This document shows, piece after piece, positions 1,587 to 32,582 of a DNA stretch of 55,795 nt. A program made the translations under genes and the position numbers. The stretch is from the IMG/VR virus record IMGVR_UViG_3300029267_001302; one strand, written 5' to 3'. Numbering within the stretch: the first letter of the stretch is position 1; every line of letters begins with the position of its first letter. The notes beneath the pieces are model-generated. The model was not told the origin of the DNA. It did no database searches and saw nothing but the letters and a program-made list of their open reading frames with translations. This DNA comes from a virus.

Positions 1587-2621
1587 TTACATTTCGTTGT
1601 CTTGCGTCAACTTTCGCTCAGCTTCCGTATCCCACACGTTTTCCAACCGCTGATTCGCAAGCCTAACGTATTCGGGTTCACGCTCAAACCCGATAAAATT
1701 CCGGCCTAGCCTCGCCGCAGCCACCGCTGTAGTTCCGCTTCCCATAAAGCAATCGAGTACGATCGCGCCTTCGTTTGAGCTATGACGAATGATATTTTCG
1801 ATTAGTTCGACGGGCTTTGGCGTGATGTGGCCGAGTTTCGGGGCGACTTCGTAATTCCAAACGGAATGGTGCGTTTTTTGATTATTGAAGACGTAGCGTA
1901 AGTTTTCGTATTCTTGGCGTAATTGTTCGTATTCAGCACGAAGCGAATCGTATGAACGCGGCTCGAAATCCGCTCGCCGCGGTAATTTTAGCAAATCCTC
2001 ATACGTTTCTAGCGTTGGTAAATCCCATTGAGCTGAGTTCCAACGAAAGCAATGATCGGCGCGCTGGCCTATTCGATCAATGATCGCTTTCTTCGTTAGT
2101 CCAAGCGCTTCTTGAAACTCGCGAAAGTAGTTTCGTAGAGTCGTAAAATTGTCGAGTGAGTGTTTAACGCGAGTCAGCCCCGTCTCATCCTGAAACGTAT
2201 AAAACAAACAATATTCCGCCATTTGCTGATAATTTCGAAGTCCGCCCGTTTCTACAAACCCGTCGAGAAATCCTTTATTCCGCGCGCCTTCAAACCGTTT
2301 ATTCCATACGATAAACTGCTTAAATACAAGCGATGTATTTTCGTTAATAGCCCGATGCAACTCGACGATCTGCTCGAAATCATTATGAAACCAGTAAAAC
2401 GACCCGTTCGGCTTCAACACGCGCTCACATTCGCGAAAAACTTCCGTCATCCACGCCACATAATCATCAACGCTCCGCCACTTGTCCCAACGTTGGTCCT
2501 TGCCGATGTTATAAGGCGGGTCTATTACGATAAGGTCAACGCTATCATTCGGCAACAAACGCATGCCTTCGATACAATCCATCTGATAAATCCGGTTTAA
2601 TTCTAATCTCTTTTCGCTCAT
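1587..2621 (-). CDS. Beta-class N6-adenine/N4-cytosine DNA methyltransferase
   Basis: The DPPY motif (IVIDPPYNIG) is N-terminal and the SAM-binding FMGSGTT motif is C-terminal. This is the beta-class motif order. No cognate nuclease is present. Confidence 0.85.
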   Translation of the reverse strand: MSEKRLELNRIYQMDCIEGMRLLPNDSVDLIVIDPPYNIGKDQRWDKWRSVDDYVAWMTEVFRECERVLKPNGSFYWFHNDFEQIVELHRAINENTSLVFKQFIVWNKRFEGARNKGFLDGFVETGGLRNYQQMAEYCLFYTFQDETGLTRVKHSLDNFTTLRNYFREFQEALGLTKKAIIDRIGQRADHCFRWNSAQWDLPTLETYEDLLKLPRRADFEPRSYDSLRAEYEQLRQEYENLRYVFNNQKTHHSVWNYEVAPKLGHITPKPVELIENIIRHSSNEGAIVLDCFMGSGTTAVAAARLGRNFIGFEREPEYVRLANQRLENVWDTEAERKLTQDNEM

Positions 2622-3026
2622 TTACCGCTCCCCTTTTTTCGACTTGTACTTCCGATCCATATACGCATTCTCCGCCTTACTTCGCTTTCTTCGCGTCGGC
2701 TTTTCGTGCTTGCGCCCGTCACTAGCGACATATTCAAGCGGCGCCATGCCGACTTCGTGCCTTTCGATTTCCTCGCGCTGCCTTTCGCTGTGTATCGGAT
2801 GTTCGGTGTTGCGCGTTTTCCACGGCGTTGCGTCCGTCACCTCCTCGTACAAGCAAAGCGTTGCCAGCCGGTCAAGATGCGACGGATCAGGCCGACGACC
2901 AGTTGCGTCGATGTACTCGTCCGTCAGCCGTTCAATTGCGGCGAACCGGTCAGCGCGCGACAGTTTGCCCGCCTTTGTTTGCGTCCATAGATCGTTGATT
3001 CGTGCGTTAAATTGTTCGAAATTCAT
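2622..3026 (-). CDS. Hypothetical basic protein
   Basis: 134-aa ORF packed between the two methylase genes. It overlaps its upstream neighbour by 4 nt. Confidence 0.65.
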   Translation of the reverse strand: MNFEQFNARINDLWTQTKAGKLSRADRFAAIERLTDEYIDATGRRPDPSHLDRLATLCLYEEVTDATPWKTRNTEHPIHSERQREEIERHEVGMAPLEYVASDGRKHEKPTRRKRSKAENAYMDRKYKSKKGER

Positions 3027-4234
3027 TGTGCAACCTCCCCTGTTCGCGCTTCGATAATTTCAACGTACTCTTCTTCGCGTTCAATTCCGATAAACCCAAA
3101 ACCTTCGCGCTTGGCTGCTACTAACGTACTTCCGCTTCCCGCAAACGGATCGAGTACGGTGCCGCCAGGCGGAGTGACTAAGCGAACAAGCCACGCCATG
3201 AGATCAACGGGTTTGACCGTTGGGTGCGTGTTGCGGTTGAATGTCTGCTTACCTAGCGAACCGTCAGCGCGCCCCTTTAATCCACCAGCTACGCGCTCAT
3301 CTAATGCAATTTCATCACCGCGCCAATCGCTATTTCGGTCGCGCTTGCTTGCTTTTTTCGAAAGTTCTTGCGGTGTCACGTTGCAGTATTTCGACCAAAA
3401 GGCGTCGGGTTCGGTTGTGACGATGTTTGCGGGGAAGCGTCCTGTATTAACGGAAGGATTCGGCGCCTGCCTATCTGTTCTCCCCTCAGCTTCTCTCCAT
3501 GCGTTGGATACTTCGCCGCTACTGCGTATTTCATCGTCTCCAATCCTACACCCATTCATATTAATTGCGCCTGTGCCGTATTTCTCCACGTTGTCGCATA
3601 CCGTGCCTTCTAACGGTTTTCTCGCGACAATAATCGGTTCATGTGCCGGCTTTAATGCCGTTCCCCAGCCGTCCCATTTCTTCGCTAATTCGGTTGCTGG
3701 GGCGGTTATTTTTACCGTCCTACTAGCGCGACTTTTACCATTATTCCAATTATAACGACCCTCTCCGTTATCGCTTCCTACACCGTCATTACGAGTCCCG
3801 ATAACTTCCCTTTCCGCGCCCGCTCGCTTATCAAACGCCTTGCTCACGTCCATCGACTTAGGGAAGCCGCTAAAATACAGCCATTCGATCACGTCACGCA
3901 CTTCAAAGCCCGCCAATCGCAAGCTAATCGTCATTAAGTCTTGCGTTCTTGTTCCAGCAAACACAAGCGCATGTCCGCCCGGCTTTAACACTCGGTACAC
4001 TTCGCGCCAAATATCAGGATGTGGCACAAAAGAATCCCAGCGCTTACCCATAAAGCCGCCATGCCCGTGATCGTAAGGCTCGCCGTTGATCCATTTCGTT
4101 AGCACCTCGACAATGTCCGGTTCTTTTGATAAGCCGTATGGCGGATCTGTTACGACGCTATCTACGCTGCTGTCTGGTAACTCTTTCAATCGATCGATAC
4201 AGTCGCCTTTTAAAATCGTGTATTCTTTCGTCAT
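3023..4234 (-). CDS. Beta-class N6-adenine/N4-cytosine DNA methyltransferase
   Basis: Motifs VVTDPPYG near the N-terminus and DPFAGSGST near the C-terminus. I place the start at ATG 4234, which is preceded by AAGGGGGAG. The longer track ORF (to 4396) would overlap 4249..4551. Confidence 0.85.
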   Translation of the reverse strand: MTKEYTILKGDCIDRLKELPDSSVDSVVTDPPYGLSKEPDIVEVLTKWINGEPYDHGHGGFMGKRWDSFVPHPDIWREVYRVLKPGGHALVFAGTRTQDLMTISLRLAGFEVRDVIEWLYFSGFPKSMDVSKAFDKRAGAEREVIGTRNDGVGSDNGEGRYNWNNGKSRASRTVKITAPATELAKKWDGWGTALKPAHEPIIVARKPLEGTVCDNVEKYGTGAINMNGCRIGDDEIRSSGEVSNAWREAEGRTDRQAPNPSVNTGRFPANIVTTEPDAFWSKYCNVTPQELSKKASKRDRNSDWRGDEIALDERVAGGLKGRADGSLGKQTFNRNTHPTVKPVDLMAWLVRLVTPPGGTVLDPFAGSGSTLVAAKREGFGFIGIEREEEYVEIIEARTGEVAQ

Positions 4235-4248
4235 TTTATCGCTCCCCC

Positions 4249-4551
4249 TTATTCGCTTGTAATTGCGCACCATTCGCCCATTCTCGCCCACACTTCGTAC
4301 ACACGCGCCACCTTCGCCGTTGCCACCGTAACCAGCCGATTGACGGTTTGCTTGCTGGCGCCCATCCGCTCGCCCGCTTCCACCTGCGATAAGCACTCGA
4401 AATACACTAGCGTAAGTGCCTCACGCTGGCGCTTCGTTAAGCCGGCCTTTTCGATCGCCGTATCCAAGTCAACGAGCAAGATAACTGCGTCATAGTCGCC
4501 GTTATATTGACGCTCAACTAGCGCGTGATAGTCGCGTAATAAGCGTTTCAC
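4249..4551 (-). CDS. Sigma-70 region-4-like HTH regulator (ArpU/RinA-type late-activator candidate)
   Basis: LTKRQREALTLVYFECLSQVEAGERMGASKQTVNRLV matches the region-4 HTH pattern of small phage sigma-like regulators. Confidence 0.5.
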   Translation of the reverse strand: MKRLLRDYHALVERQYNGDYDAVILLVDLDTAIEKAGLTKRQREALTLVYFECLSQVEAGERMGASKQTVNRLVTVATAKVARVYEVWARMGEWCAITSE

Positions 4552-5240: not shown

Positions 5241-5766
5241 CCTTGTCAACCTTCGCACACAATTCATCAACCGTCCCGTCATTCGCTACTTCGTAATCAA
5301 CTTCGAACGAATCGACGAAAGTTTCTGTTTCGTGTACCAAGTCCGCCTCGGCAAAGTCATCGCCATCTTTTTTCGCACGCTCAATCCGCAATTCATCTGG
5401 CGCAGTAATTCGCACAAATACGAAGCCTTCTCGTTTCAGCCGGTCATATTCGTTTTGTTGTCGCACGTCCTCGATCAAAATTCGCAAGCAATTTTGCGAC
5501 AAATACTCGCCAACCTTTCGCATGGTTGCGTCAATCCACACGTTTTCGTCAATCGTCGTTCGCGCCCATTGACCGAACGACTGGTAATAGGCGCGTGGCT
5601 TCGGTTGTCGCGGTATTTGCGGAAAAGCACGGTGAAACGCGTTTTTGAGCGCGTCGCCAAAGGCAAACGGTTGAAAGTCGTGCATAAGCGACAAGTAACC
5701 GGCAACTAGCGACTTGCCAGAACGAAGTTTACCGCAAAGGGCGAGTTTGATTGGCGATTTATTCAT
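5215..5766 (-). CDS. Deoxynucleoside-monophosphate kinase-like P-loop kinase
   Basis: Walker A motif CGKLRSGKS at the N-terminus, about 180 aa, nucleotide-metabolism context. Confidence 0.6.
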   Translation of the reverse strand: MNKSPIKLALCGKLRSGKSLVAGYLSLMHDFQPFAFGDALKNAFHRAFPQIPRQPKPRAYYQSFGQWARTTIDENVWIDATMRKVGEYLSQNCLRILIEDVRQQNEYDRLKREGFVFVRITAPDELRIERAKKDGDDFAEADLVHETETFVDSFEVDYEVANDGTVDELCAKVDKVIRQLTEK

Positions 5767-6460
5767 CGCCCTTCACCGCCTTTACTAGCGTTACTAACGG
5801 TTGCGTACGTTCGTCTAACGTGACAATATCGTCAAGCGTCATTTCCACTTTGCTATCAACTTCTGTAAGGTTTCGTTCTAACTCCGTCACCCGCTGCGCT
5901 AAATTGGCGAGCAAGTCAAGTACGGTCTTGGACGTTTCGGTTTCGTCGTCGCTTTCTTCGGCTGGCTCAACGGGTTCAAGAACGAGGTATTGAAAATGAT
6001 AAATAGCGCCTTTTTTACCGAAATCATGCGGCCTTATCATTTCGCCGAAACTGCTGCCGTCTGTTTCGATGATTTCAACTATTTCGCCGACATTTCTATA
6101 GACTAACGTATCGTTTGCTACAACAACGATAACCTTTTCACCGACTTTGGCGTTACGACCAACCATGCGGTATCGTACGCCGTCGATGTGTACGATACTA
6201 GTCGGTTCTAACGTTTGATATTCGTATTTATTAATTATGTCAAACTTTTCGCAGTAAACGTCACCGTCTTCGAATGCTTTCACAACCGTCATGATTGTAC
6301 CTTGTGTATAGTCATCCCCGAATTGAAAAGTGCTAGGGTTGACGATAACGATTTTATCGCCCACTTCCGCCTTCCGATCAACATCGACAAACTCGCGCAA
6401 CACACCGCCTAAGTTTTCGTCTGGTAAGATATGGACGTTAGTCCCGTGAATTTTGCTCAT
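5759..6460 (-). CDS. Hypothetical protein with SH3/KOW-like repeats and an acidic coiled-coil tail
   Basis: 233 aa. Repeated segments VGDKIVIV / VGEKVIVV and RVTELERNL recall ORF 19676..20659. Confidence 0.65.
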
Positions 6461-6843
6461 TCCGATTCCTCCTTGGCTTTAATAAAATCAACTGATTCCG
6501 AATAATATCCGTTTGACGTTCCGTACCATCGAATTGTCACGTAACCTTTATTAGTCGCGAATTTATAAAATGTCCACGTATAGCTTTCATCCCATTTATC
6601 AAGAGGCGGACGTTCTTCGATAACTTCCTCCGCCATTACAATCGGACTTCCGATTAAATCGTCTAAGTCACCGCAAATATCTTCGATAAATACGGATTCG
6701 CAACAGTCTTGCTCGTGGTACATTATATAAACTTCGCCATCTTCCGTGTAAAAACGGATTTCGTCTCCTTCGTCGCTGGTGCTCTTAACGATTTTTGTCA
6801 ACGTCTTTCCGATTAGTTCGCTAATGTTCAAGTATTCGCTCAA
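6457..6843 (-). CDS. Hypothetical protein
   Basis: 128 aa with a TTG start that overlaps the upstream stop (TTGA). Conserved-looking [15 protein letters not shown] pattern. Confidence 0.7.
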
Positions 6844-6950: not shown

Positions 6951-7709
6951 TTAAGCTTGCTCGAAAAACACGTCCGTCCACGGTTCAACTTCAACGACTG
7001 CTTTCCGTAATTCTTCAGCTAATTCCGCAATCTCCGCTTGAGCTCCGCGTCCTTTACGTCGCTTACCGTAAAAATCGAGCAAAGCGCGTAAGTTTGCGGT
7101 CATGACAAGGTTCGTTGTGGCGGCGTTTGGTAAAAGCATCCTGCAATCTTCCGGCGGTATCCCTAACTCGCGCAATGTATCGTATTTTTCTTGAATTTCT
7201 CCCATGAAGTCATGAAACAAACTGTTTGCGCCAATATGTCGGCGAATCGAATCTGGCACAACGTAATCAAAACCGCCTGTCTTGTCGTCCGAGCCAAAGC
7301 GATTGTATCTCTGTGACTGCACACTGTATGAAAACCCGACGCGGTGACGTGTTAGTTGCGCCAATAACGCTCGGCTCACGCCTTCGATCGCAAAAGTGAA
7401 CGTTAGGTGCTCCAAAGTCGACGTATGACCTGATCGAACGATCATGCGGAACAGACGGTCAGCTTCCGTTCCTGCTTCGCCATCGGTTGCTTTACTGCCG
7501 AAATATTTAGCGCCTTCTTTTGCAACGATTTCGCTCGGTTTGTTGGCGCTGTAGCACGTTCGAATTGCGGTGAGTGCAACCGCTTGGCCGTCGGTTACAT
7601 CTAAATCATCCAATTTATTACCGCTATATTCTAAAAATTCGTTATATTTATCGAAACTATCGTAAAATTCTTCGCTTAATTTCGTGTGAGCGATTAAGTT
7701 TACTTTCAT
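6951..7709 (-). CDS. thyX: Flavin-dependent thymidylate synthase ThyX
   Basis: ThyX signature LTRHRVGFSYSVQSQRY (RHR...S..SQRY). The ATG at 7709 follows GGAGGGAGG. Confidence 0.9.
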   Translation of the reverse strand: MKVNLIAHTKLSEEFYDSFDKYNEFLEYSGNKLDDLDVTDGQAVALTAIRTCYSANKPSEIVAKEGAKYFGSKATDGEAGTEADRLFRMIVRSGHTSTLEHLTFTFAIEGVSRALLAQLTRHRVGFSYSVQSQRYNRFGSDDKTGGFDYVVPDSIRRHIGANSLFHDFMGEIQEKYDTLRELGIPPEDCRMLLPNAATTNLVMTANLRALLDFYGKRRKGRGAQAEIAELAEELRKAVVEVEPWTDVFFEQA

Positions 7710-7870
7710 GCGCCTCCCTCCAATGCACAACCGATAAAATACGCAATAAGAATCCCTAAAATGACGTATGCTACTACATTTCCGTTTACAAGACCGTTTA
7801 TCAGTGTAATAATCGCAATTACGAGTAATAAGAACATCGTTCCTAAAACGAATCTAGCGATATGTTTCAT
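7706..7870 (-). CDS. Small membrane protein (54 aa)
   Basis: Absent from the ORF track. ATGA overlaps occur at both ends (7867-7870 and 7706-7709). Two hydrophobic segments. Confidence 0.55.
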   Translation of the reverse strand: MKHIARFVLGTMFLLLVIAIITLINGLVNGNVVAYVILGILIAYFIGCALEGGA

Positions 7871-8049
7871 TCGTCACCCTCCTTGTATTTCAAAGTATCT
7901 CGTACATCATTCCAGTAATCTATTGTCTCCTGTTTGAAATTCGTTTTTACACCGTTCCCAGACTTCTCGTACCATTTCGCGAATATGTGCAGGAAATAAA
8001 ACGGGATACAGAATATAACGCATAATACTTTAACGGTTATAAGTCGCAT
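7867..8049 (-). CDS. Small membrane protein
   Basis: 60-aa ORF with the hydrophobic N-terminal half VKVLCVIFCIPFYFLHIF. Confidence 0.55.
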   Translation of the reverse strand: MRLITVKVLCVIFCIPFYFLHIFAKWYEKSGNGVKTNFKQETIDYWNDVRDTLKYKEGDE

Positions 8050-8087
8050 TCCGCCCTCACCCCGCCATTTTCGAAATCAAATTCGAG

Positions 8088-8606
8088 TTATTTATATAAC
8101 GTTCCCGAACTACCGAACCCGCCTTCGCCGCGCTCTGTTTCGTCCAGCTCGTCAACCTCGATAAAGTGCGCCTGCTCGACCGGCTTGATTACCGCTTGCG
8201 CGATTTTTTCGCCTTTACGAATCAAGTACGTATCGTTTGGGTACATTTCGCCGTCTGTACGATAATCTAAACCGTCAATATATGTTAGATATTGCGATTC
8301 ATTACCGCACGGGTCTTCCGCAATATTATCGACAATCACACCGATTTCTCCACGGTAACTCGAATCAACCGTGCCAAGCACAACTCGTAATTTCGTCCGC
8401 AGGCTGATACCGCTGCGTGGTCGCACTTGTAATTCGTAGCCCGGCGGTAGTTCGAACGCCAAGCCTGTGCGGACTAACTTCGTTTCGCCCGGCTCTATCA
8501 CCGTATCTTCGATTGCGACAAGGTCAAAGCCGGCATCGCCTTCGTGTGCGTATCGCGGAATAACTGCGTCAGGGTGTATGCGTTTGATTTTAACGTTCAC
8601 TTTCAT
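8088..8606 (-). CDS. dut: dUTP pyrophosphatase (trimeric dUTPase)
   Basis: Motifs GDAGFDL, RPRSG, GTVDSSYRGEIGVIV and RGEGGFGSSG. The ATG at 8606 follows GGAGGAG. Confidence 0.9.
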   Translation of the reverse strand: MKVNVKIKRIHPDAVIPRYAHEGDAGFDLVAIEDTVIEPGETKLVRTGLAFELPPGYELQVRPRSGISLRTKLRVVLGTVDSSYRGEIGVIVDNIAEDPCGNESQYLTYIDGLDYRTDGEMYPNDTYLIRKGEKIAQAVIKPVEQAHFIEVDELDETERGEGGFGSSGTLYK

Positions 8607-8739
8607 CCGTATCTCCTCCATCGCTTAATTTTCGTAAGCCATCGCTATTTCTCTCGATTACTTTCGCAGCAATTTTTCGGACTTTTTCTGTTCGCTCATC
8701 TTGTTCGTTAGTCCAGCGCCATAAATCATCGTTTGTCAT
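8590..8739 (-). CDS. Small hypothetical protein (49 aa)
   Basis: Absent from the ORF track. Its ATG overlaps the stop of the C5-MTase (ATGA at 8736-8739). Confidence 0.45.
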   Translation of the reverse strand: MTNDDLWRWTNEQDERTEKVRKIAAKVIERNSDGLRKLSDGGDTDESER

Positions 8740-9947
8740 TCGCTATCAACTCTTGTTTTTGCGTTGTTTAACTGTTCGGCAAGCGCTACCCCTAGCTTAT
8801 AAGCCACTAGCGAAGGAATACCGCTGCATCTTTCGTACTGTTTTTCTAATGGAATATCGTCAGAAAAAGAGAACCAATCTGGGACTGATTGTATTCGGAG
8901 ACATTCCCGGACGGTAAATCTACGTGGCGGAGGTACGTCGTATTCGTCCATTTTTCTTATGTCGTAATTAGGCGGCTCGGGATGTAAAGGTAATTGTCTT
9001 GCACATGAGACGATTGTAAAACTCGGTTCGTCCCATTGTTTTTGTCTGTTTCGCGACTTATACCTCGATGAAAATCCGCCGTCGTAGTATTTATCGTGAT
9101 TATCGATAATTTGAGCGTTGTTCTTTCCGTTCATTACAGAGGTAATCGTGTAAGCAGGCTTATCAAACGAGACTTTTCTCAAAAATCCTGTTCTTCCACC
9201 TCCCGAATTGAAGGCTCCTCCTAAAAATTTGCGTTGATCTTCTTCCGGCAAGTCTCTCCAATTTCCACCAGGCGGTATTTTATCGATAAACGGTGCTTCA
9301 TCTTTTCGAATCCCATAACCTCTATGATTGTTAATTCCGTTTGGCTCGGGTAAGTCTCCTATTACGTCACGCAGCACTTTTCGTTCGTTTTCAGGAACTG
9401 GCTCAGGGAATTTATATTTAATCTCGATGTCTTTTCGAATACCAACAATGAAAACTCTCTCTCGTAATTGTGCAACCCCATAGTCAAAGCAGTTAATTAA
9501 TTTCCATTCAACGTTATAGCCGGCATTTGTAAAGTTCTCGATCAACTCATTGAAAAAAGTACGGTGCTTTTTCGATATAATCCCTTTTACGTTCTCGCCA
9601 ATAAATGCTTTCGGTTGATTGTCTCGAACTAAACGGAATAAATGATAACCTAAATCACCATTTTTCTTATCCTTTACCCCTTCACCTTTTCCGGCAAAGC
9701 TAAACGGAGTACAAGGGAACCCGCCGACATAAACATCAGCATATGGCACTTCCGAGCTTTTTAATTTTCTAATATCTGCGACCCTCGCGTGATTTCCGAT
9801 GTTTCTGTTGTACGTATCAACCGCATATTTTTTAATATCAATCGCATCGATAATCGTATAACCCGCTAATTTAAACCCCACCGCTCCGATACCGGCGCCA
9901 CAGAATAAGTCAACCATTGTAAGACCATTGCTTTCTAATTGCTCCAA
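8736..9947 (-). CDS. C5-cytosine DNA methyltransferase-fold enzyme with atypical motif X (candidate DNA carboxymethyltransferase)
   Basis: Motifs I FCGAGIG, IV GGFPCTPFSFAG, VI ENVKG, VIII QLRERVFIVG and IX RRFTVRECLRIQSVPDWF are present. Motif X reads YERCSGIPSLVA instead of ..QxGN(A/S)VP... The likely start is TTG 9947, 8 nt after GGAGG. The track ORF extends to 10031 and an ATG at 9917 is an alternative start. Confidence 0.85.
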   Translation of the reverse strand: MEQLESNGLTMVDLFCGAGIGAVGFKLAGYTIIDAIDIKKYAVDTYNRNIGNHARVADIRKLKSSEVPYADVYVGGFPCTPFSFAGKGEGVKDKKNGDLGYHLFRLVRDNQPKAFIGENVKGIISKKHRTFFNELIENFTNAGYNVEWKLINCFDYGVAQLRERVFIVGIRKDIEIKYKFPEPVPENERKVLRDVIGDLPEPNGINNHRGYGIRKDEAPFIDKIPPGGNWRDLPEEDQRKFLGGAFNSGGGRTGFLRKVSFDKPAYTITSVMNGKNNAQIIDNHDKYYDGGFSSRYKSRNRQKQWDEPSFTIVSCARQLPLHPEPPNYDIRKMDEYDVPPPRRFTVRECLRIQSVPDWFSFSDDIPLEKQYERCSGIPSLVAYKLGVALAEQLNNAKTRVDSE

Positions 9948-9960
9948 AGTAGACACCTCC

Positions 9961-10653
9961 TCACTTGATAGCGATAAGTCCGACAAAGTTATTCCATTTG
10001 AAAAACATGTCAATATCTTTAAAACCTGCATTTTCTAGCAAATTAATGTTTTCGTTAACGGTAAGAGGACGTAAAACTCCACGAATTGATCGAGCTTTCT
10101 TGAATACTTCCTCCTCGGTAACGCCGTTTTTTAACTTTAATTCGTGACACAATTCGACCCACATTTCATTAAATCGGGCGTTATTACCGATGACTTTCTC
10201 GACTAGGATAAATCCGCCGCCTTCGTTTAGACCGTCGAATACCTTGTTTATTAGTGACTGTCTGTAACGTTGAGGTACGAATTGGAGCGTTAAGACGGAA
10301 GTCACTAGACAAGCGTCAATTATTTTAAACGTTTCATTTGTTATATCATCTAGGACGATTCTTACACGACTGTCGCCTTTAAAAGTATTTTTTGCTTTTT
10401 CGACCATTTCTCGAGACAAGTCTATTCCGATATATCTCACCTCTTTTGTCGGATATTTTCGGGTTAAGTTCGAAATAACTTTTCCTGTAGAAGTTCCGAT
10501 GTCGTAAACGCATGAACCGTCTTCTATAAACCACCCCGCCAATTCCGCAACTAGATGGTGTATTTCTTCGTATAAAGGAACGTGTTGTTTTACATGCTCA
10601 TTAAAAATCGGTGTCACGTTTTCGTCGAACTTCCAAATAGAAACTCCGCTCAA
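9961..10653 (-). CDS. cmoA: Carboxy-S-adenosyl-L-methionine synthase homologue (CmoA family)
   Basis: Full-length pattern match to E. coli CmoA, aligned from memory. Shared blocks are WKFDENVTPIF..VPLY, VYDIGTSTG, LTLQFVPQRYRQSLINKVFDGLNEGGGFILVEK and the C-terminal FKWNNFVGLIAIK. The TTG start overlaps the upstream stop (TTGA). Confidence 0.8.
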   Translation of the reverse strand: MSGVSIWKFDENVTPIFNEHVKQHVPLYEEIHHLVAELAGWFIEDGSCVYDIGTSTGKVISNLTRKYPTKEVRYIGIDLSREMVEKAKNTFKGDSRVRIVLDDITNETFKIIDACLVTSVLTLQFVPQRYRQSLINKVFDGLNEGGGFILVEKVIGNNARFNEMWVELCHELKLKNGVTEEEVFKKARSIRGVLRPLTVNENINLLENAGFKDIDMFFKWNNFVGLIAIK

Positions 10654-10787
10654 TCACTATCAACCTCCTCTTTAATTTCGCGCATCATTTCGCGCCATGT
10701 CTTTTTCGGAATCTTACCTTCTCGCATCAGCTTCAATTCGTTTAACGCTTCGATAAGTGATTTTCGCAAATCTCGTTTATCCGTCAT
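10650..10787 (-). CDS. Small hypothetical protein (45 aa)
   Basis: Absent from the ORF track. GAGGTTGAGAG lies before ATG 10787, and the stop overlaps the CmoA-like start. Confidence 0.5.
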   Translation of the reverse strand: MTDKRDLRKSLIEALNELKLMREGKIPKKTWREMMREIKEEVDSD

Positions 10788-10853: not shown

Positions 10854-11570
10854 TTAAACATTCCCTCTCGCTTCCAACTCCGCAAATTCCGGCGCCATCT
10901 CGTGATTTCGCAAAATATCCTCAACGATTTCCACAACCGGATGGCGCTGAACTTCCGTTAAGTTAATATGATCGAAATATTCGTATGCTTCTCGCTCATA
11001 TAAACCGGCAAGCAACCGGTAAAGCCCATTCGTTTTCGTGTTCCGTAGTTTCGTGTTGTCAATTTGCGCGAAGTTCCCGATGAATACGAATTTCGAACCA
11101 ATTGTCGGTCTTGTTGCGATCGCTGCGATTGTATGAACGTCGAGGTTCTGCGCTTCATCTAGCATGAGAAATGCGTGATTGATTGATCGTCCACGAATCG
11201 TTTGAATCGAATCGAAAAATATCTTGCGTTTGTCGTCGTCGCCTTCCGCAAAGTATTTCTTCAATTCGCTAGGTTTGGCGGTCATAACTTCAAGATTATC
11301 CATGAACGGTGCGACGAACGGATAAGTCTTTTCGTTTAAGTCGCCAGGCAATGCGCCAACGTCCATGCCTAACTGCGTTTGAAGTCGTGTGTAAATCAAT
11401 TTGCGGTAGCGTCGCGTTTCAATCGTATGTTCCAGCCCGACTGCTTGCGCGATTAAGGATTTACCGGTACCTGCGGGCCCCGTTAGAAACGTGAAAGGCT
11501 TGTCGTTAATCAACGCCTGCATGGCTCGTTTTTGAGCGTCATTTTTCGCCGATATTCCGAAAAACGCCAA
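10854..11570 (-). CDS. phoH: PhoH-like ATPase
   Basis: Walker A GPAGTGKS, Walker B FLMLDEAQN, and a PhoH-type C-terminus. Confidence 0.85.
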   Translation of the reverse strand: MAFFGISAKNDAQKRAMQALINDKPFTFLTGPAGTGKSLIAQAVGLEHTIETRRYRKLIYTRLQTQLGMDVGALPGDLNEKTYPFVAPFMDNLEVMTAKPSELKKYFAEGDDDKRKIFFDSIQTIRGRSINHAFLMLDEAQNLDVHTIAAIATRPTIGSKFVFIGNFAQIDNTKLRNTKTNGLYRLLAGLYEREAYEYFDHINLTEVQRHPVVEIVEDILRNHEMAPEFAELEARGNV

Positions 11571-11754: not shown

Positions 11755-12714
11755 TTAGTCGAAAATAAAATCCTCGTCGCGAATCGGTTCGACTTTCGCT
11801 TTTTTGTAGCCGTTTCCTTTCATCGAAAAGAAATCGTGCGACTTCGTTTTCGTCGAAAGCCCGTTTATTACAATCGGATTCACGTCGTCATGTTCGAATT
11901 GAGGCTCAAAACCTAAATTTGAAAGCGCCTTGTTCGCGTTATATCGAACGAAATTAAGAACGTCATAAGTTAGCCCAACCTCGTCGTATAATTCGTGAGT
12001 GTAATCAACTTCGTTTTCATATAGTTGCATAATCAAATTCGTTACAAAGTCGTATAGTTCTCGTTTAACTTCGTCAGGCTGCTTATTATACAACTCCTGC
12101 GCCAGCAGTCCGACATAAACGCCATGAATCGCTTCGTCGCGAATGATAAGATTTATAATTTCACCGCAATTCATTAACCGTCCTTGTCCGTAAAAGTACA
12201 ACGGATAGTAGAAACCGGAGTAGAAAAGGAAACTTTCTAGGAATACCGACGCTACCATTGCTTTATAAAGCGATATATCGTCAGTAATCGTTTTATATAG
12301 TTCGCCTATGATTTCCGCCTTCCGTTGCAAAAACGGATTATCATGCGCCCATTTGAATAGTTCGTTTATTTCTTCCATCGAACATAACGTAATAAAGATG
12401 TTCGAGTAAGATTTTGCGTGAACCGCGTTTTCCATTGCTGCCATAAAAGACAGCAAGGCTTTTCGTTGGTGTCCGTCCACATGTCGTAAAATCGAGTTCA
12501 TTCCAACGTCTCCTTGAAGTGTGTCAAGCAACGTCAGACCTGCCAACACTCGCGAATATGTTTGTCGTTCAGCGTCCGTAAGTAATTTCCACGAATGAAT
12601 ATCGCCAGTTAACGATATTTCTTCCGGCAACCAAAACTGCCGAGTGTTTTGTGCGTAAAATAATTGCGTAAAATGATCGTCAGGCTGCGCCCAATTTGCT
12701 GCTGTATATGACAA
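11755..12714 (-). CDS. nrdF: Class Ib ribonucleotide reductase beta subunit NrdF
   Basis: 319 aa with di-metal ligand patterns (EAIHG region). It lies immediately downstream of nrdE and nrdI. Confidence 0.9.
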
Positions 12715-12726
12715 ATAATCTACCTC

Positions 12727-14814
12727 CTAAACTGCACAAGATAAACATTCAGATTGGCCTGTATCTTTCGTTCTAGCGTAATATAACGTTTTGATTCCGC
12801 GATAGTGAGCGTATAAATCAACTCTCGTTAAATCCCGCGTTGTATGTGTATCCTTCATGAATAACGTGAAGCTAATCGCTTGGTCAACGTGTCGTTGAAT
12901 TGTCGCGATCATGTCGACAACTCTGAACATATCCATGTCGTATGCTTCTTTGTATAAGAACCATGTTTTCGGCGAAAGACCCGGCATTGGGTAATATGTT
13001 TTCGAATTACCATACGTGCGTTCCTCAATTCGCTCCATAATCGGCATAACGCTTGCTGTCGCTGACTGAACGTAACTAATTGAACCGGTCGGTGCAATTG
13101 CTAATCGATAAGCGTGATATAACCCATGTTTCATTACAGATTCTTTCAGCTTCGCCCAATCATCGCGAGTAGGTAATGTAATACCTTCGAATAGTTTCGC
13201 CACACGTTCGCTTTTCGGTGTGAAATCCTCATTAAGGTACATGTCGAAATACTCGCCGGTGTGATACTTCGAGCCTTCAAACCCGTAGAAAGTTTCGCCA
13301 CGTTCTTGCGCTATTTCGTTGGAACGAATTAGCGACCAGTAGTTCATCGCCGCAAAAAACACGTCAGCAAACTCGCGAGCCGTTTCGCTTTCGTAAGGGA
13401 TACCGTTTTGTGCTAAATAGCCGTGCAAATTCATTGCGCCAAGTCCAACGGAATGCATTAATCGATTTGCTTTAGCAACTGCCGGTGCATTCACGATATT
13501 TGTCGAATCTGAAACCATCGTTAAGGCATCCATTGCCAACTTAACGGATTTTTCAATCGACTTGTTCGCCATAACATTAGCGATGTTTAACGAACCTAGA
13601 TTACAAGAAATGTCTAAGCCGATTTTGTCAGGCTGGCCATAGTCGGTGTATTCCGACAAAATACTTACCTGAGCGATCTCGGTACAAAGGTTGGAAAACT
13701 TAACTTTTCCAACGTTATCTAGCGCATGAACACGGTTAACGTTGTCCTCGAACACAATAAACGGATACCCCGATTCAAACCGTAAAGCCGATATTTTTTC
13801 TAACAATTGACGTGGGTTTGCTTTTTTCTTACGAACTGCCGGATTTTCTACCAATTCGTCGTACATTTCGGTTAAATTCATGTCGTCAAAATGACGTCCG
13901 TACGCTTTATAAACAGTGTGCGGGTAAAACAAATACACGGGCTTGTTTTCTCGCGCCAATTCAATGAATTTATCCGGTATAATAACGCCAATACTTAGCG
14001 TTTTAACACGAAAGTCCTCGTCAGCGTTAATTTTTTTCGTTTCCAAAAATTCGTTAATGTCAGCGTGGAAAATATTAAGATACGCTGCGCCTGCCCCCGG
14101 TCGTTGACCCATCTGATCGGCATACCGAAACGCATGGTCAAGCATTTTCATTACACCAACGACGCCCTTTGCGACACCTTCGATTTCTTTTATTGATTCG
14201 CCTTTTGCACGAATTTTTGATAAATTAAGCGAAACGCCGCCGCCGATTTTAGAAAGCTGTTTTGCGATCGATTCCGCCATATTTATGTCGTTAAGACTGT
14301 CGCCAACTTCGAGCAAGAAACACGAAACTAATTCGCCACGACGGGCGCGTCCAGCGTTGAGGAACGTTGGTGTTGCGGGCTGATACTCTTGATTGATTAA
14401 TAGTTTCGCAAACTCAACGGCTTTGTCCGCGTTGCCATCGGCAAGAAATAACGCGACAATTGCGATTCTATCTTCGTACCGCTCTAGTATCTTCTTTTTA
14501 TCGTTTGTTTTCAGCGCATAATCGTTATAAAATTTAAAAGCGCTCATGTACGATGGAAACCGGAACTTTTTCGCATAAGCCGTTTCATAAACACGCTTGA
14601 TTTCGTCAAATGTATATTTATCTAGCACGGTTTTATCGTAGTAATTATTTTCGACTAAGTAATCGAGTTTTTCGCGTAGGTTATGGAAAAACACGGTGTT
14701 TTGATTTACGTAGTCGATAAAATAGGCTTTGACAGCTTCTTTGTCTTTTTCAAGCTGTAAGTCTCCGTTTTCATCACGCTGCATGATTTCGTTGTTTAGT
14801 TCGATATACCGCAC
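12727..14814 (-). CDS. nrdE: Class Ib ribonucleotide reductase alpha subunit NrdE
   Basis: 695 aa with the active-site motif FSNLCTEI and the C-terminal Cys pair ECLSCAV. The gene is uninterrupted, with no intein-sized insertion. Confidence 0.92.
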   Translation of the reverse strand: MRYIELNNEIMQRDENGDLQLEKDKEAVKAYFIDYVNQNTVFFHNLREKLDYLVENNYYDKTVLDKYTFDEIKRVYETAYAKKFRFPSYMSAFKFYNDYALKTNDKKKILERYEDRIAIVALFLADGNADKAVEFAKLLINQEYQPATPTFLNAGRARRGELVSCFLLEVGDSLNDINMAESIAKQLSKIGGGVSLNLSKIRAKGESIKEIEGVAKGVVGVMKMLDHAFRYADQMGQRPGAGAAYLNIFHADINEFLETKKINADEDFRVKTLSIGVIIPDKFIELARENKPVYLFYPHTVYKAYGRHFDDMNLTEMYDELVENPAVRKKKANPRQLLEKISALRFESGYPFIVFEDNVNRVHALDNVGKVKFSNLCTEIAQVSILSEYTDYGQPDKIGLDISCNLGSLNIANVMANKSIEKSVKLAMDALTMVSDSTNIVNAPAVAKANRLMHSVGLGAMNLHGYLAQNGIPYESETAREFADVFFAAMNYWSLIRSNEIAQERGETFYGFEGSKYHTGEYFDMYLNEDFTPKSERVAKLFEGITLPTRDDWAKLKESVMKHGLYHAYRLAIAPTGSISYVQSATASVMPIMERIEERTYGNSKTYYPMPGLSPKTWFLYKEAYDMDMFRVVDMIATIQRHVDQAISFTLFMKDTHTTRDLTRVDLYAHYRGIKTLYYARTKDTGQSECLSCAV

Positions 14815-15155
14815 TTAACCACCCTTTCTTTAAATGTTTTAACATCGTCGTCTGTGCCGGCCAGTTCGAACTTTAAAAGTAACGGAACGTTGTATTTATT
14901 CGTGATAATATCGCCTGCTTTTCCGAAGGAATCGCCCCAATTACGATTACCACTCACCGCCACGCCGCGAAGTAAGTCGCTGTTTTGCTCTAAAAACTCA
15001 TCGACAATTTGCGGAACTTGACCGAAACCTATCGTATAAGTAACAAGTACGAAAGGCTCGATCGCTTTTATACCACGCTTTATTTCAACCGCAGGCAATC
15101 CCGTTTTCTTAACGAACCTTCGTGTGTTACCTGTAAGCGAAGAATAGTAAATCAC
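14796..15155 (-). CDS. nrdI: NrdI flavodoxin-like protein
   Basis: MIYYSSLTGNTRRF N-terminus, 119 aa, upstream of nrdE. Confidence 0.88.
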   Translation of the reverse strand: MIYYSSLTGNTRRFVKKTGLPAVEIKRGIKAIEPFVLVTYTIGFGQVPQIVDEFLEQNSDLLRGVAVSGNRNWGDSFGKAGDIITNKYNVPLLLKFELAGTDDDVKTFKERVVKCGISN

Positions 15156-15323: not shown

Positions 15324-15511
15324 CCATTATTCACCTCCGTGTTCAACAAATCACGTAAGTCGCGCAAATGCTTTTCATGTTCGTCACGTTCTCGTTTGAG
15401 TTCCGTTAATTTTCGTTCTACTCGCCTAATTTCGTATTCGATGTCGGCAAGTGTTTGTTCTTCGTCAGCCACTAATCGGCGCAATAAGGCGTAGTCAATC
15501 ACATCGACCAC
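15317..15511 (-). CDS. Small coiled-coil protein
   Basis: 64-aa ORF that overlaps the end of the RuvC-like gene. Confidence 0.55.
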   Translation of the reverse strand: MVDVIDYALLRRLVADEEQTLADIEYEIRRVERKLTELKRERDEHEKHLRDLRDLLNTEVNNGC

Positions 15512-16011
15512 CTACCGCCCTCCTTAATTAAACCTTTTTCAATCGCCCAAGCCAACGCTACCGCCACCGCGTCGCTACAATCATCAGTCGCAAACTCGCC
15601 AGTGTAACCGGTCAACCGACGAACCGCCGCTTCCACTTCGTCTTTTTCCGCTTTACCCTTGCCGACAACTAAACGTTTAACTTTCGATTGGCTTATCGGT
15701 TTTTCCGTAAAGTTTAAGTTAAACTCGGCAAGTGCGCGGTCAATTGCCGACCAAGCTGCGAAAACCGGATGGTTTTGCACGCTTGACCGTCCTTGAAAGT
15801 CCTCACGAACAATTACGTCAAACTTTGCGCCGTGTTCGTGAATGAATGCGACCGCCCATGCATAAACAATTTGCGTCCTAAGTGCGTGTGATTGCTTGCT
15901 GTCGGTTTTTACGTGGCTGACGGCGATAATATACGGTTTATTGCGCTTGATTTCGACTAACGCAACGCCTGGCGACGAAAGCGAGGTGTCAAAAGCTAAT
16001 ATCCGTGTCAT
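15499..16011 (-). CDS. ruvC: RuvC-family Holliday junction resolvase
   Basis: ILAFDTS..G N-terminal catalytic Asp, VRED, KVKRLVVGKGKAEKDEV, and DDCSDAVAVALAW. Confidence 0.8.
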   Translation of the reverse strand: MTRILAFDTSLSSPGVALVEIKRNKPYIIAVSHVKTDSKQSHALRTQIVYAWAVAFIHEHGAKFDVIVREDFQGRSSVQNHPVFAAWSAIDRALAEFNLNFTEKPISQSKVKRLVVGKGKAEKDEVEAAVRRLTGYTGEFATDDCSDAVAVALAWAIEKGLIKEGGRWSM

Positions 16012-17003
16012 TCCTTCACTTCCTTTTCACGCACCTCACGAATATACTCAAACGCGTCATAATACGCCTGCTTGCGCCATTCCTGCAACCTCGATCTTAA
16101 CGCTCGTTTAACAAACGCCTTGATTTCGTCAAATTCTTCGTCAGTAAGACTTAAAGCACACGCAGTCTTGTAATTGTTGAACGTGAACTTGTCAATGTCT
16201 AGTTTTGGCGGCTTACGTTCGCGAACGGCACGGTTAATGCCAGCCAGTCTATCGAACAATTCCGCTCGATCGTCGTCAGTAATATGCAGGCAAAATGCTC
16301 GCATGTCCGGCGTTTTTTCGTATTGCTCATCGGTCACTTCCCACGCTTGCTTTGCGGCATTAACGTAGAGTATGACGTAATAATCACAATCAAACATGGC
16401 GCTGTAAGCAACGACTTGTTTAGCGTGTTTATAGTCAGGCGCAATCATCGAGTGTAAACTCGTTTTAGCTGGCGTTGTTTGCTTCGACTTGATCTCGAGG
16501 CCAACACGTATAACCTCACCATCGTCCGTTGTATAGCGCATAATTCCGTCCGGCGCGCCGTAAAGGTAAAACCGCTCGCCGCCCCACTCGACAAGATGAT
16601 TCTTTTTCGCAAAATCCTCGAACATCGGCCGTCCGTCAGGCGTGCGCTCGAACACGAAAGGCGGTTTATTGCCTGTATTCTTTTCGAAATGTTTTTCGAT
16701 AAACAAAATGTCGCGCTGAATGACGCCGCCGATCGCTGTTCCGATTCGTTGCCAACGTCCTTGATGTGGTTGCTGTTTCGTCTTGTCGCGCTCAGCCCCG
16801 ATCGCTTTCATATAAAGTTCGCGCGGGCAAGCGTCGGCAGCTGATGGGCTGAAATATGGCCGCTTCGGATATACCGATTCGACTTTCGCGTACCATTCGT
16901 GAATTTGCGAATCTAATTCGTTGTCCCAAACCTCTGGCAACGAGTGCCATTCGTCTAACATTGCGATTAAGTCTCCTTCAATTTGCGCTTGTAAGTTCGT
17001 CAA
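16008..17003 (-). CDS. PD-(D/E)XK superfamily nuclease (RecB/YqaJ-like exonuclease candidate)
   Basis: GAPDGIM ... VGLEIKSK gives a D...E-x-K arrangement. 331 aa, next to RuvC and the polymerase. Confidence 0.5.
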   Translation of the reverse strand: MTNLQAQIEGDLIAMLDEWHSLPEVWDNELDSQIHEWYAKVESVYPKRPYFSPSAADACPRELYMKAIGAERDKTKQQPHQGRWQRIGTAIGGVIQRDILFIEKHFEKNTGNKPPFVFERTPDGRPMFEDFAKKNHLVEWGGERFYLYGAPDGIMRYTTDDGEVIRVGLEIKSKQTTPAKTSLHSMIAPDYKHAKQVVAYSAMFDCDYYVILYVNAAKQAWEVTDEQYEKTPDMRAFCLHITDDDRAELFDRLAGINRAVRERKPPKLDIDKFTFNNYKTACALSLTDEEFDEIKAFVKRALRSRLQEWRKQAYYDAFEYIREVREKEVKE

Positions 17004-17049: not shown

Positions 17050-17851
17050 TCACGCAATCATCCCTTTCTCTTTTCTCGCAAACCACTCGTCAACCGTCAT
17101 ACCTTCGCCCCACCTTAGCGACAACTCAATGTCCGTCTTGTTCGGCACGTTACCGAAACGATACGTATTAATCATCACATCCTCAAATTCCGCAATATCT
17201 TCGCGAGTAATAGTGTTTGGAACTAACAAAAGCACCTCGTCGTGTATAGTCGCGAGCAATCGCCAACCTTTTCGTTTACATAATTCATGTAGTCGCACGA
17301 TCGTTGTCTTCGTTTGAATTGCGCTTGTTCCTTGAATGACGGCATTTGGGCCTTGTCGCAATGCTCTCGACACATCTGCGTCATAACCAAACGTTCGCTT
17401 TTTCGCTTCTGGCAACCGCCGTTTTCGTTGTTGCTTATCCATCCAAACGAATCCATTCTTACGACAAAACGCCTGTGTTTCGTCAATCCAACGTTTAACG
17501 TTAGCGTGTTTTTTGAAAAATTTGTTGAGAAAGTCCTTCGCTTCTTCAACGGTGCAGCTAAGCTGTTGCGAAAGAGTTGTCGGCCCCGTTCCGTATAGCG
17601 CCGCAAGCACGCCTGTTTTCATTGCTTTTCGCTCCGGTGTGCCGTCGCCGCATTCTTCGTATGGCTTCCCGTAAAAATCAGATGCCATTGAAGCGTAAAC
17701 GTCGCGACCTTCGGCATAAGCGTTAAGCAATACTGGTTCTTGTGTAAAATAAGCAGCGCAACGAATCTCTTGTTGCGAAAAGTCTCCGCCCAAAATAACC
17801 CAACCTTCCGGTGCAACAAACAGTTTTCGAGCAGATTTCGGCTGATTTTGT
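17050..17851 (-). CDS. polA: DNA polymerase I family (family A), exon 2
   Basis: It begins (L)QNQPKSARKLFVAPEGWVILGGDFSQQEIR, which matches the Pol I NLQNIP...DYSQIELR motif A region, and continues through the palm and finger motifs to a stop at 17050. Confidence 0.85.
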
Positions 17852-18185
17852 CCAATTGTTATTAACCGTCGGCTCTTTATCCGACGCTCCGGAGGTTTCC
17901 CTCATTTTCATCGACCGGTCAATTCCGGTCCGGTGTAGACTATATCATCGACTGTCAAGGTAAACGAATCTAAAGCCAGCTGGCTTTTAATTTGACAGTC
18001 GCCCCGCTTTCGTGCCGCTTTACCGCCGTCGACTTTACGTTACGGCTCCATGCGGTAGTCGTTGCACCTTCCGTGGGTTTCCCCATCGGCTTGGCTCATG
18101 GTTGCCCTCGACTTTAATCGTTAGGGGTTTCCATGAATTAACGGGGTACTGCACACATAGTCGCCTATGTGCCGCCCTTTTCTAA
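17852..18185 (-). ncRNA. Group I self-splicing intron (ORF-less, 334 nt) in the DNA polymerase gene
   Basis: Exon 1 ends ..AACCU and the intron ends ..CAAUUGG (omega-G). Removal restores GNGVNL-QNQP in frame. It contains GACUA and GAUAUAGUC (the P7/J8-7 R and S consensus blocks) and several GNRA-capped hairpins (GCGA, GAAA x2). Confidence 0.8.
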
Positions 18186-19525: not shown

Positions 19526-19683
19526 CGCAACCAACTCCTTTTGTATTCGTCAACAAACGTTTCGTGAAACCATTCTTCGAAACATGATTCATCGCAAAAA
19601 TATTGCTCGGAGAATCGGTCGTAAATGGCGAGTGTGTCGTCTAGTATTACGCCGCACACGACACACTCTACGCCGTCAGTCAA
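19522..19683 (-). CDS. Small TRASH/MYM-type zinc-finger-like protein (about 53 aa)
   Basis: Absent from the ORF track. The cysteine spacing is C-x2-C-x19-C-x3-C (ECVVCG...YFCDESC). Its stop overlaps the polymerase TTG start (TTGA). The start codon is uncertain (TTG 19683, TTG 19689 or GTG 19692). Confidence 0.45.
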   Translation of the reverse strand: MTDGVECVVCGVILDDTLAIYDRFSEQYFCDESCFEEWFHETFVDEYKRSWLR

Positions 19684-32469: not shown

Positions 32470-32582
32470 AAAATAACCTCCCGTCAAACAATAACGAAAG
32501 GACCCGTTTACCTGCGTTAAAACGGACGCGAACCTTGCGAAAAACTTATCGGTCGTTTTTACGGTGTTCGCGTCCTTACTCG

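Follow-up and report, generated by a model that had tools for sequence, protein, structure and literature searches.

The window analysed here, at its full length of 55,795 nt, is the viral DNA sequence IMGVR_UViG_3300029267_001302 from IMG/VR. On its minus strand, it encodes a homologue of CmoA, a synthase of carboxy-S-adenosyl-L-methionine (Cx-SAM), followed by a homologue of the C5-cytosine DNA methyltransferases. It is predicted, with a probability of around three in four, that the two genes form a self-contained cassette, which makes Cx-SAM and writes 5-carboxymethylcytosine (5cxmC) in the phage DNA. The support for this reading is indirect but strong. A preliminary description of the sequence had proposed such a two-gene cassette, and the proposal finds support in the precedent of Synechococcus phage S-B43, in the match of the first product to CmoA and in the CmoA linkage of a methyltransferase clade sharing an unusual motif X, RCSGIP, with the window enzyme (the RCS type).

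The same description knew of no characterised natural phage cassette, a statement that is now out of date. The CmoA-CmoX-CmoY system of S-B43 was published by Yang et al. (Nat Commun, 7 Dec 2025; PMC12783734), together with the CmoX structure (PDB 8YF3). Since the CmoA/CmoX chemistry of this phage has been shown experimentally, the concept of the cassette is already known and not novel. SpCmoA is the Cx-SAM synthase of S-B43, and SpCmoX accepts Cx-SAM only and writes 5cxmC at GC sites. CmoY, an asparagine-synthetase-like ATP-dependent ligase, amidates the carboxyl of 5cxmC with glycine. 5cxmC blocks digestion by HhaI. In the crystal structure of SpCmoX, Arg350 replaces the Asn of motif X (N304 in HhaI) and ligates the carboxylate. 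The combination of SPPC (S95-P96-P97-C98) and R350 was used to collect 5,615 CmoX candidates, and 2251 ligases were counted. Where a phage CmoA is absent, host CmoA is needed, and CmoX alone uses host Cx-SAM in E. coli (PMC12783734). New here is a different methyltransferase lineage, which fails the CmoX signature, yet is as tightly linked to CmoA, occurs in Gram-positive mobile elements and comes with no ligase.

A CmoA-Family Protein

The cmoA-like gene (9961..10653, minus strand) has a TTG start, encodes 230 amino acids and ends with a TGA stop at 9961-9963. A Shine-Dalgarno-like GAGGAGG can be read from the sequence at 10664..10670 (minus strand), 10 nt 5' of the TTG, and an earlier start is excluded by an in-frame TGA at 10654-10656. 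The protein matches the TIGR00740 CmoA model with E=2.3e-48 (165 bits) over profile positions 14-239 of 239. The second-best family reaches only 6e-08, forty orders of magnitude weaker, and the CmoA match is far beyond chance. The preliminary description had claimed a CmoA match along the whole length, which holds, and the peptide blocks quoted for it, WKFDENVTPIF, VYDIGTSTG, LTLQFVPQRYRQSLINKVFDGLNEGGGFILVEK and FKWNNFVGLIAIK, are all present. The sequences of E. coli and H. influenzae CmoA (CmoA/YecO in the PDB) align end to end with the protein, at about 8e-33 and 3e-31. It shares 34% identity with the validated SpCmoA and 47% with the CmoAs of Staphylococcus phages, and in PHROGs it matches phrog_4752. 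The 230-aa protein is a member of the CmoA family, with a predicted function as a synthase of Cx-SAM from S-adenosyl-L-methionine (SAM) and prephenate.

The classical role of CmoA, together with CmoB, is the synthesis of 5-carboxymethoxyuridine (cmo5U) in tRNA, and both PHROGs and GenBank label phage homologues as 'tRNA methyltransferase'. The window CmoA could on this ground supply Cx-SAM for an RNA modification of the cmo5U wobble type, and not for DNA. This is considered very improbable. Neither CmoB nor a ligase was found among the replication and nucleotide-metabolism open reading frames (ORFs) scanned with Pfam or PHROGs, the structural-gene half lying outside that scan, and ARAGORN reported no tRNA gene in the window. 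The host is also unlikely to have CmoB, as Gram-positive tRNA carries 5-methoxyuridine (mo5U) rather than cmo5U (PMC6158493, PMC10516636). The CmoA/CmoB pathway, TglE and MccS resemble the predicted DNA cassette in using the same Cx-SAM synthase family with a dedicated partner transferase encoded alongside. They differ in that the partner in the window is a DNA C5-methyltransferase, instead of CmoB, TglF or MccB, and in that the acceptor would be the C5 of cytosine.

The Downstream C5-Cytosine Methyltransferase

The methyltransferase gene (8736..9947, minus strand) starts with a TTG at 9945-9947 and encodes 403 amino acids. Only 13 nt separate it from the cmoA-like gene. As the preliminary description had noted, a GGAGG ribosome-binding site (9956..9960, minus strand) directly abuts the cmoA stop, and a 7-nt spacer leads to the TTG that opens the 403-aa protein. 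The public protein P0001 consists of the same 403 amino acids (100% identity), which means that an independent gene caller picked the same start. The placement of the GGAGG points to a translationally linked, operon-like expression of the two genes. A promoter and terminator scan placed no such site between them and gave no signal above the shuffled expectation.

Members of the C5-methyltransferase superfamily are recognised by motifs I (FxGxG), IV (PC), VI (ENV), VIII (QxRxR) and IX (RxxTxRExxRxQ), in addition to the fold. The window protein carries FCGAGIG, GFPC, ENV, QLRER and RRFTVRECLRIQ in the corresponding places. The blocks that the preliminary description had cited as a full motif set, namely FCGAGIG, GGFPCTPFSFAG with the catalytic Cys, ENVKG, QLRERVFIVG and RRFTVRECLRIQSVPDWF, were all recovered, and PF00145 (C5 DNA methylase) matches above its cutoff with E=8e-67. 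The best solved relative by sequence is M.HaeIII (6e-54), whereas SpCmoX (8yf3) follows at 1e-15 over the N-terminal half only, with an identity of ~26%. An AlphaFold2 model of the protein (mean predicted local distance difference test score, pLDDT, of 67) is confident in the catalytic domain and falls below 50 in the recognition domain. Its best fold match is HaeIII (template modelling score, TM, of 0.69-0.71), with M.HaeIII and M.HhaI at 0.65-0.71 and 8yf3 at 0.64. These comparisons place the 403-aa protein, a complete homologue of the C5-cytosine methyltransferases, in the M.HaeIII/SPbeta-like lineage.

Of the characterised enzymes, M.HaeIII and the multispecific methyltransferases of SPbeta and phi3T are nearest to it in sequence and fold, with the same catalytic motifs, a homologous GGCC recognition region and, in the Bacillus phages, an anti-restriction role. 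This relationship suggests another explanation, in which the window enzyme is an ordinary SAM-dependent orphan methylase like those of SPbeta and phi3T, forming 5-methylcytosine (5mC), probably in GGCC, while the CmoA serves another purpose such as draining host SAM and so weakening defences that depend on it. All catalytic motifs are indeed kept, the nearest relatives use SAM, neither R350 nor SPPC, which mark CmoX, is present, and a CmoA-driven depletion of SAM was raised as a possibility by Yang et al. (PMC12783734). The known relatives differ, however, in their canonical PPCQ and GN motifs, SAM as the cofactor, 5mC as the product and in never standing beside CmoA in the surveyed loci. An ordinary 5mC enzyme would leave the tight translational coupling of the pair unexplained, as well as the gene linkage and the ligase locus described below, and is regarded as unlikely.

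Motif IV of the window enzyme (GGFPCTPFS, 9699..9725, minus strand; codon of the catalytic Cys79 at 9711-9713) does not have the SPPC form. The Thr following the Cys (PCT instead of PCQ) recalls engineered mutations that widen the pocket; it was considered as a second space-opening change and rejected as a discriminator, the residue varying between T, K, Q, N, S and A in the RCS clade. The residue after the Cys does not track the CmoA linkage either, PVCK being common to a CmoA-less GN group and a CmoA-linked RCS sister. One methyltransferase of the RCS clade is 668 aa long and contains Hint/intein domains (PF13403, PF14890), i.e., an intein insertion (P0076, locus L172).

A Variant Motif X

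The canonical Gly-Asn of motif X (N304 in HhaI) is absent from the window enzyme. According to the alignments, its motif X (QYERCSGIPSL, 8808..8840, minus strand) has Ser375 at the Asn position and an Arg373 (codon 8829-8831) upstream. It reads QYERC-SGIPS where close relatives have QYEIVGNGIPS and HaeIII has YKMIGNAVP. Among the 120 closest public homologues, 98 carry the form [YHF]x-R-[CT]-S-G-I-P, in which the Arg is invariant, and 19 have the canonical QYEIVGNGIPS. A pairwise alignment of an RCS and a GN enzyme with 58% identity resolves the change into I to R, V to C, the deletion of G and N to S. The pocket-lining Asn is thus lost, the loop becomes one residue shorter and an Arg is gained at position -3. 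Enzymes of the CmoX GR type also have this -3 Arg (ERVGR in SpCmoX, ERAGR, ERLGR), while every inspected GN relative has Gln, Met or Ile there. Arg373 is the Arg nearest to the R350 position and aligns with R347 of SpCmoX. The intermediate motif X forms RCGGG (P0023) and MCGNG (P0033) come from contigs that end 110-530 bp upstream, and their contexts are uninformative.

Engineered M.MpeI uses CxSAM best when the motif X Asn is exchanged for a cationic residue, and mutations that open up space let in bulky analogues of SAM (PMC13288465). Judged from its sequence, the window motif X is a combination of both, a cationic residue and a space-opening change. Arg373 is proposed to bind the carboxylate of Cx-SAM.

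A widened pocket might also produce a promiscuous enzyme that takes SAM as well as Cx-SAM and leaves a mixture of 5mC and 5cxmC, the ratio being set by the Cx-SAM that CmoA supplies. Wild-type M.MedI, with the canonical Asn, methylates with SAM and weakly carboxymethylates with Cx-SAM, its N377K mutant still methylates, and the window enzyme, unlike SpCmoX, lacks an Arg precisely where the Asn would stand. The natural SpCmoX, on the other hand, is strictly specific for Cx-SAM (PMC12783734), and the near-obligate linkage to CmoA suggests that SAM alone gives no useful product. Promiscuity is held to be improbable on balance.

Linkage of the Variant Motif X to CmoA Genes

The gene neighbourhoods of ~250 loci were surveyed, with 5-6 kb flanks, in GTDB genomes, IMG/VR, and JGI and ENA metagenomes. 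The loci were collected by alignment-based scans and exact-protein look-ups; at each of them motif X was classified and the flanks were searched for CmoA homologues. Single-protein scans of IMG/VR and one methyltransferase genome scan returned almost no loci, and a 19-sequence CmoA alignment was too divergent to serve as a seed.

A CmoA gene accompanies the RCSGIP motif at 19 of 24 loci, nearly always directly upstream and on the same strand, and at three of the five remaining loci the upstream sequence is shorter than 250 bp. At canonical GN-motif loci no CmoA was found (0/171), including the sister group with 58% identity. The preliminary description had named a lack of co-conservation in related phages as a reason to abandon the cassette; the survey finds the pair co-conserved. 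In a neighbour-joining tree computed with motif X masked, one large RCS clade appears with a GN subclade nested inside it. The GN members P0092 and P0088 have no CmoA, and the sister RCS group (B. cereus P0054, 58% identity) has one. Because the CmoA-less GN subclade nests in the CmoA-linked RCS clade, the association between motif X and CmoA spans at least one internal transition. This joint behaviour of motif X and CmoA, down to sisters with 58% identity, is left unexplained if the enzyme simply makes 5mC.

The CmoA-linked loci belong to phages and prophages (B. pumilus L254), a relaxase element of B. cereus (L252), an Aneurinibacillus plasmid (L007) and a contig of Bacillus sp. M6-12 (L006). 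An ENA metagenome contig from a related phage (ERZ795069 NODE_959; L246) has an identical methyltransferase and a CmoA-like gene of the same length, with ThyA (PF00303) and HNH endonuclease genes where the window (region 6951..8621) has ThyX. As these flanks differ around the conserved pair, the cassette moves as a unit.

Viewed from the synthase, nearly all CmoAs at least 44% identical to that of the window have a C5-methyltransferase immediately downstream, with GR, SR, GG or RCS in motif X. The same CmoA lineage (57-60% identity) pairs elsewhere with GR-type and GG-type methyltransferases. On one IMG/VR contig (IMGVR_UViG_3300042922_000152, L267, 5932..9008), a short methyltransferase of the RCS type (QHERCSGIPP) is encoded together with a CmoA and a PP-loop ligase resembling CmoY (SGGTDS). 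A ligase with a carboxyl substrate beside an RCS-type enzyme, a finding that a pure 5mC function does not account for, is the most direct hint that the RCS type may make 5cxmC. This locus is also the only case seen of an RCS-type methyltransferase with an amide ligase.

Other Loci with CmoA Homologues

The contig IMGVR_UViG_3300007767_000004 (L004, 2760..6184) encodes a CmoA with 60% identity to that of the window, a CmoY-like ligase and tandem methyltransferases of the GR (YERAGRTV) and the Staphylococcus-like GG (YDVVGGVINQ) types. This arrangement suggests several carboxymethylation specificities in one phage. In L006 (7261..8298) and L007 (7271..8320), the pair is followed by a second C5-methyltransferase-like gene, in which a Ser stands in place of the catalytic Cys (ASPPSNFFS) and ENV is lost. 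Its product is apparently a paralogue without activity, which might read the modified site. StiP/PELOTA, C-C bond lyase and PRTase_2/TRSP genes come next.

About 20 IMG/VR contigs (L275, L277-L285, L287-L297) have CmoA homologues of 32-38% identity and no C5-methyltransferase within 6 kb. In L275, the sole one scanned, a 500-aa protein encoded two ORFs upstream matches ParB-N weakly (E=3e-06) and class I methyltransferases below the threshold. Its gene adjoins the large terminase gene, and the ORF layout is common to L281 and L295. Based on these matches, the protein might be a different Cx-SAM-dependent DNA transferase; Yang et al. stated that they had found no enzyme of that class (PMC12783734). 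A human faecal phage contig (MT835562; L271/L257, 4058..8104) has a CmoA with 44% identity to that of the window and no DNA methyltransferase flanking it. The flanks encode a saccharopine-dehydrogenase-like protein and two proteins that weakly match the PEMT family (PF04191), the first exceeding the Pfam cutoff and the second falling just short of it. In this case Cx-SAM may serve an acceptor other than DNA.

Target Site and End Product

The target-recognition region of the window enzyme (residues 276-341; 8925..9122, minus strand) is homologous to the domain of M.HaeIII, which recognises GGCC. It lies in the second stretch aligned by phmmer, in which query residues 276-386 match HaeIII 203-317 (E=8e-15). 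One clade member bears the NCBI name fnuDIM. Over the whole window, GGCC occurs 38 times against 110 expected sites, an observed/expected ratio of 0.35 and the lowest of the 16 palindromic tetramers. Other tetramers are less extreme, with AGCT at 0.56 and CGCG at 0.65, and CTAG is over-represented (1.35). Given the HaeIII-aligned recognition region, the fnuDIM-named relative and the depletion of GGCC, this sequence is probably the target.

No window ORF of at least 50 aa matches SpCmoY or the CmoY-like homologue of Staphylococcus phage F1 (BLASTP, E<=1). Since no CmoY was found, nor CmoB or a tRNA gene, the predicted final base is free, unamidated 5cxmC. Based on the presence of mo5U, not cmo5U, in tRNA (PMC6158493, PMC10516636), Gram-positive hosts are not expected to make Cx-SAM. 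The near-obligate pairing with CmoA in the clade would be explained by such a host.

The base might still be an intermediate only, which a phage or host enzyme not recognised as such amidates, esterifies or decarboxylates to another hypermodification. S-B43 virion DNA contains the glycine amide only and no free 5cxmC (PMC12783734), CmoY-like ligases occur at related loci (L004, L264-267), and function-unassigned ORFs lie near the cassette, e.g., 5759..6460 (phrog_27882) and the DUF7448 gene at 6457..6843. Most RCS-type loci, however, have the two genes only, as has a Staphylococcus SPbeta-like phage; the window gave no ligase homologue in the search above; and the ligases counted by Yang et al. 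are far fewer than the CmoX enzymes (2251 versus 5615; PMC12783734). A further conversion is therefore given only a small chance, and unamidated 5cxmC is the preferred end product.

Weighing of the Cx-SAM Assignment

Several observations weigh against the assignment of a 5cxmC cassette, and most of them concern the methyltransferase. The R350 of CmoX is replaced by Ser375 in the window enzyme (by Gly376 in an ungapped alignment), and motif IV reads G-F-P-C and lacks the SPPC that defines CmoX. As the published determinant residue is missing, the use of Cx-SAM is deduced here and not read from a known signature. The CmoX pocket is moreover sensitive to changes, since replacing R350 of SpCmoX by Asn abolishes all activity (PMC12783734). 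The preliminary description had not seen that the determinant residue is missing. The GGCC specificity is also deduced, and the recognition domain is the part of the structure that is modelled poorly (pLDDT <50).

The survey has weaknesses of its own. At two loci of the RCS type (L173, L177), CmoA is missing within some 5 kb. One large clade gives most of the co-occurrence, so that it reflects few independent evolutionary events, and the co-occurrence tree is a crude neighbour-joining tree.

Two further points concern the CmoA homologue. Its 165 bits fall under the curated equivalog cutoff of TIGR00740 (NCBIfam; PRK15451), which is 193.3 bits. With the same model, the biochemically validated SpCmoA obtains 115.6 bits, less than the window protein, and other homologues from phages and mobile elements obtain 155-180 bits. 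Because the validated enzyme scores lower still, the cutoff reflects the proteobacterial tRNA-pathway clade and not a loss of function, and the sub-cutoff score was dropped as an argument against a synthase. In E. coli CmoA, Arg-199 is the sole side chain contacting the Cx-SAM carboxylate, and the backbone segment of Phe-133 (TLQF) is also involved (PMC4482062). The window homologue has an Ala in the Arg199 column of a MAFFT alignment. An Arg (Arg191, in the motif S-I-R-G-V-L; codon at 10081..10083, minus strand) is found at the column of E. coli Glu203, i+4 from Arg199 and on the same helix face. Validated SpCmoA has an Arg at this column too (E-L-R-D-M-L), which is present in 13 of the 15 aligned sequences, the exceptions being L180 and the weak L178. 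As the same arrangement, with an Arg at column 203 and not at 199, occurs in SpCmoA and nearly all homologues, the window CmoA appears to match the validated phage form. The TLQF segment is kept in the alignment and common to SpCmoA.

Comparison with Known Systems

The window resembles S-B43 in encoding a phage CmoA beside a C5-methyltransferase homologue without the Asn of motif X, and in both CmoAs an Arg stands one helical turn after the Arg199 column. The predicted chemistry is the same, from SAM and prephenate over Cx-SAM to 5cxmC, and so is the presumed anti-restriction role. The window enzyme differs, however, in being HaeIII/SPbeta-like (~26% identity), with GFPC instead of SPPC. The R350 position is occupied by a Ser in a shortened loop, with the Arg 2-3 residues upstream. 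Neither a CmoY ligase nor a ParB-domain gene was detected in the window, and 5cxmC is predicted in place of the glycine amide. GGCC is the likely target, compared with GC in S-B43, and the host is a Bacillus-like Gram-positive that is not expected to supply Cx-SAM.

Among GenBank phages, the closest CmoAs (47%) are those of the Staphylococcus phages vB-SscS-F1, SPbeta-like and PhiSepi-HH3. These phages of Gram-positive hosts also have CmoA followed by a C5-methyltransferase without the motif X Asn, and the SPbeta-like phage has the two genes only. Their methyltransferases belong to an unrelated lineage (~26% identity to the window enzyme) and differ by an Asn-to-Gly change (YDVVGGVINQ), with no nearby Arg and with PCQ kept. 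Phage F1 has an additional CmoY-like ligase.

The engineered carboxymethyltransferases M.MpeI N374K and M.MedI N377K, from the Kohli and Yuan laboratories, are altered at the motif X Asn. As proposed for the window enzyme, a C5-methyltransferase is retargeted to Cx-SAM through a change of the Asn and a cationic side chain near the transferred group. They are laboratory point mutants of CpG specificity with a Lys at the Asn position, whereas the window enzyme is natural and combines a Ser and a one-residue deletion with a cationic residue from another position.

Proposed Mechanism

Judging by homology, the CmoA homologue would convert SAM and host prephenate to Cx-SAM. Cys79 of the methyltransferase would then attack C6 of cytosine in duplex DNA, and the carboxymethyl group of Cx-SAM would be transferred to C5, yielding 5cxmC; this transfer step is suggested by the gene linkage and the active-site changes. 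Ser375 and the shortened loop are thought to make room where the Asn packs against the methyl group of SAM, and Arg373 would bind the carboxylate. In the absence of a CmoY-type amide ligase, 5cxmC would stay unamidated as the final modification. It would presumably protect the 38 remaining GGCC sites from restriction of the HaeIII/BsuRI type.

We lean slightly towards a wider conclusion, namely that the RCSGIP clade is a second, independently evolved natural route by which a C5-methyltransferase uses Cx-SAM. It may have proceeded by Asn to Ser, a one-residue loop deletion and an Arg from position -3, in place of the change from Asn to Arg. The route may have arisen inside the HaeIII/SPbeta-like lineage, always paired with its own CmoA. 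It may then have spread via phages, prophages, plasmids and conjugative elements of Bacillus, Brevibacillus, Paenibacillus, Aneurinibacillus and clostridia.

Genomic Context

The pair lies inside a nucleotide-metabolism block, as the preliminary description had it, with genes for dUTPase (8088..8621), ThyX (6951..7730), PhoH (10854..11570), NrdF/NrdE/NrdI (11755..15155) and a deoxynucleoside monophosphate kinase. The two further methyltransferases that it listed are likewise confirmed by annotation. They are N6/N4 DNA methyltransferases encoded at 1587..2621 and 3023..4396, both on the minus strand (PF01555, E=1.5e-54 and 3.8e-33). The phage encodes three DNA-modifying transferases in total.

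The window is from a temperate Bacillus-type siphophage, with an integrase gene at 31492..32586. The 52845..54551 protein has ~60% identity to unannotated proteins of the Bacillus phages phBC6A51, PHBA67-T and Mgbh1, and 41-45% identity to annotated large terminase proteins of other Bacillus phages. A megablast of window positions 8000-11600 against GenBank phages found no nucleotide-level relatives.

A group I catalytic intron (Rfam RF00028, 72.7 bits, E=1.4e-16) is located at 17915..18201 (minus strand), between the ORFs 17050..17793 and 18182..19534. The family A DNA polymerase gene shows up as two ORFs because this intron interrupts it. The 331-aa product of 16008..17003 (minus strand) has no Pfam hit and matches phrog_1706 (labelled 'CRISPR/Cas system associated', E=3e-61); its gene adjoins that of a RuvC-like resolvase (15499..16011).

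Implications

The rule of SPPC and Arg350 appears too narrow, as a HaeIII-like clade of at least about 100 distinct public sequences seems to reach the same cofactor switch through another remodelling of the pocket. If the second route is real, the published sequence definition of CmoX misses a whole branch of enzymes. The clade would also offer enzyme engineering a second natural template, one that probably recognises the 4-bp site GGCC, for 5cxmC-writing tools in methylation sequencing and footprinting.

The type of system would extend to Gram-positive hosts expected to lack Cx-SAM, in which the mark would be fully orthogonal to host metabolism. The pair is also found on plasmids and integrative elements, and its ligase-free versions predict free 5cxmC, unlike the native DNA of S-B43. 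If true, Gram-positive mobile elements and the bacterial chromosomes harbouring them would bear unamidated 5cxmC, probably at GGCC, as a stable mark with an epigenetic or anti-restriction role.

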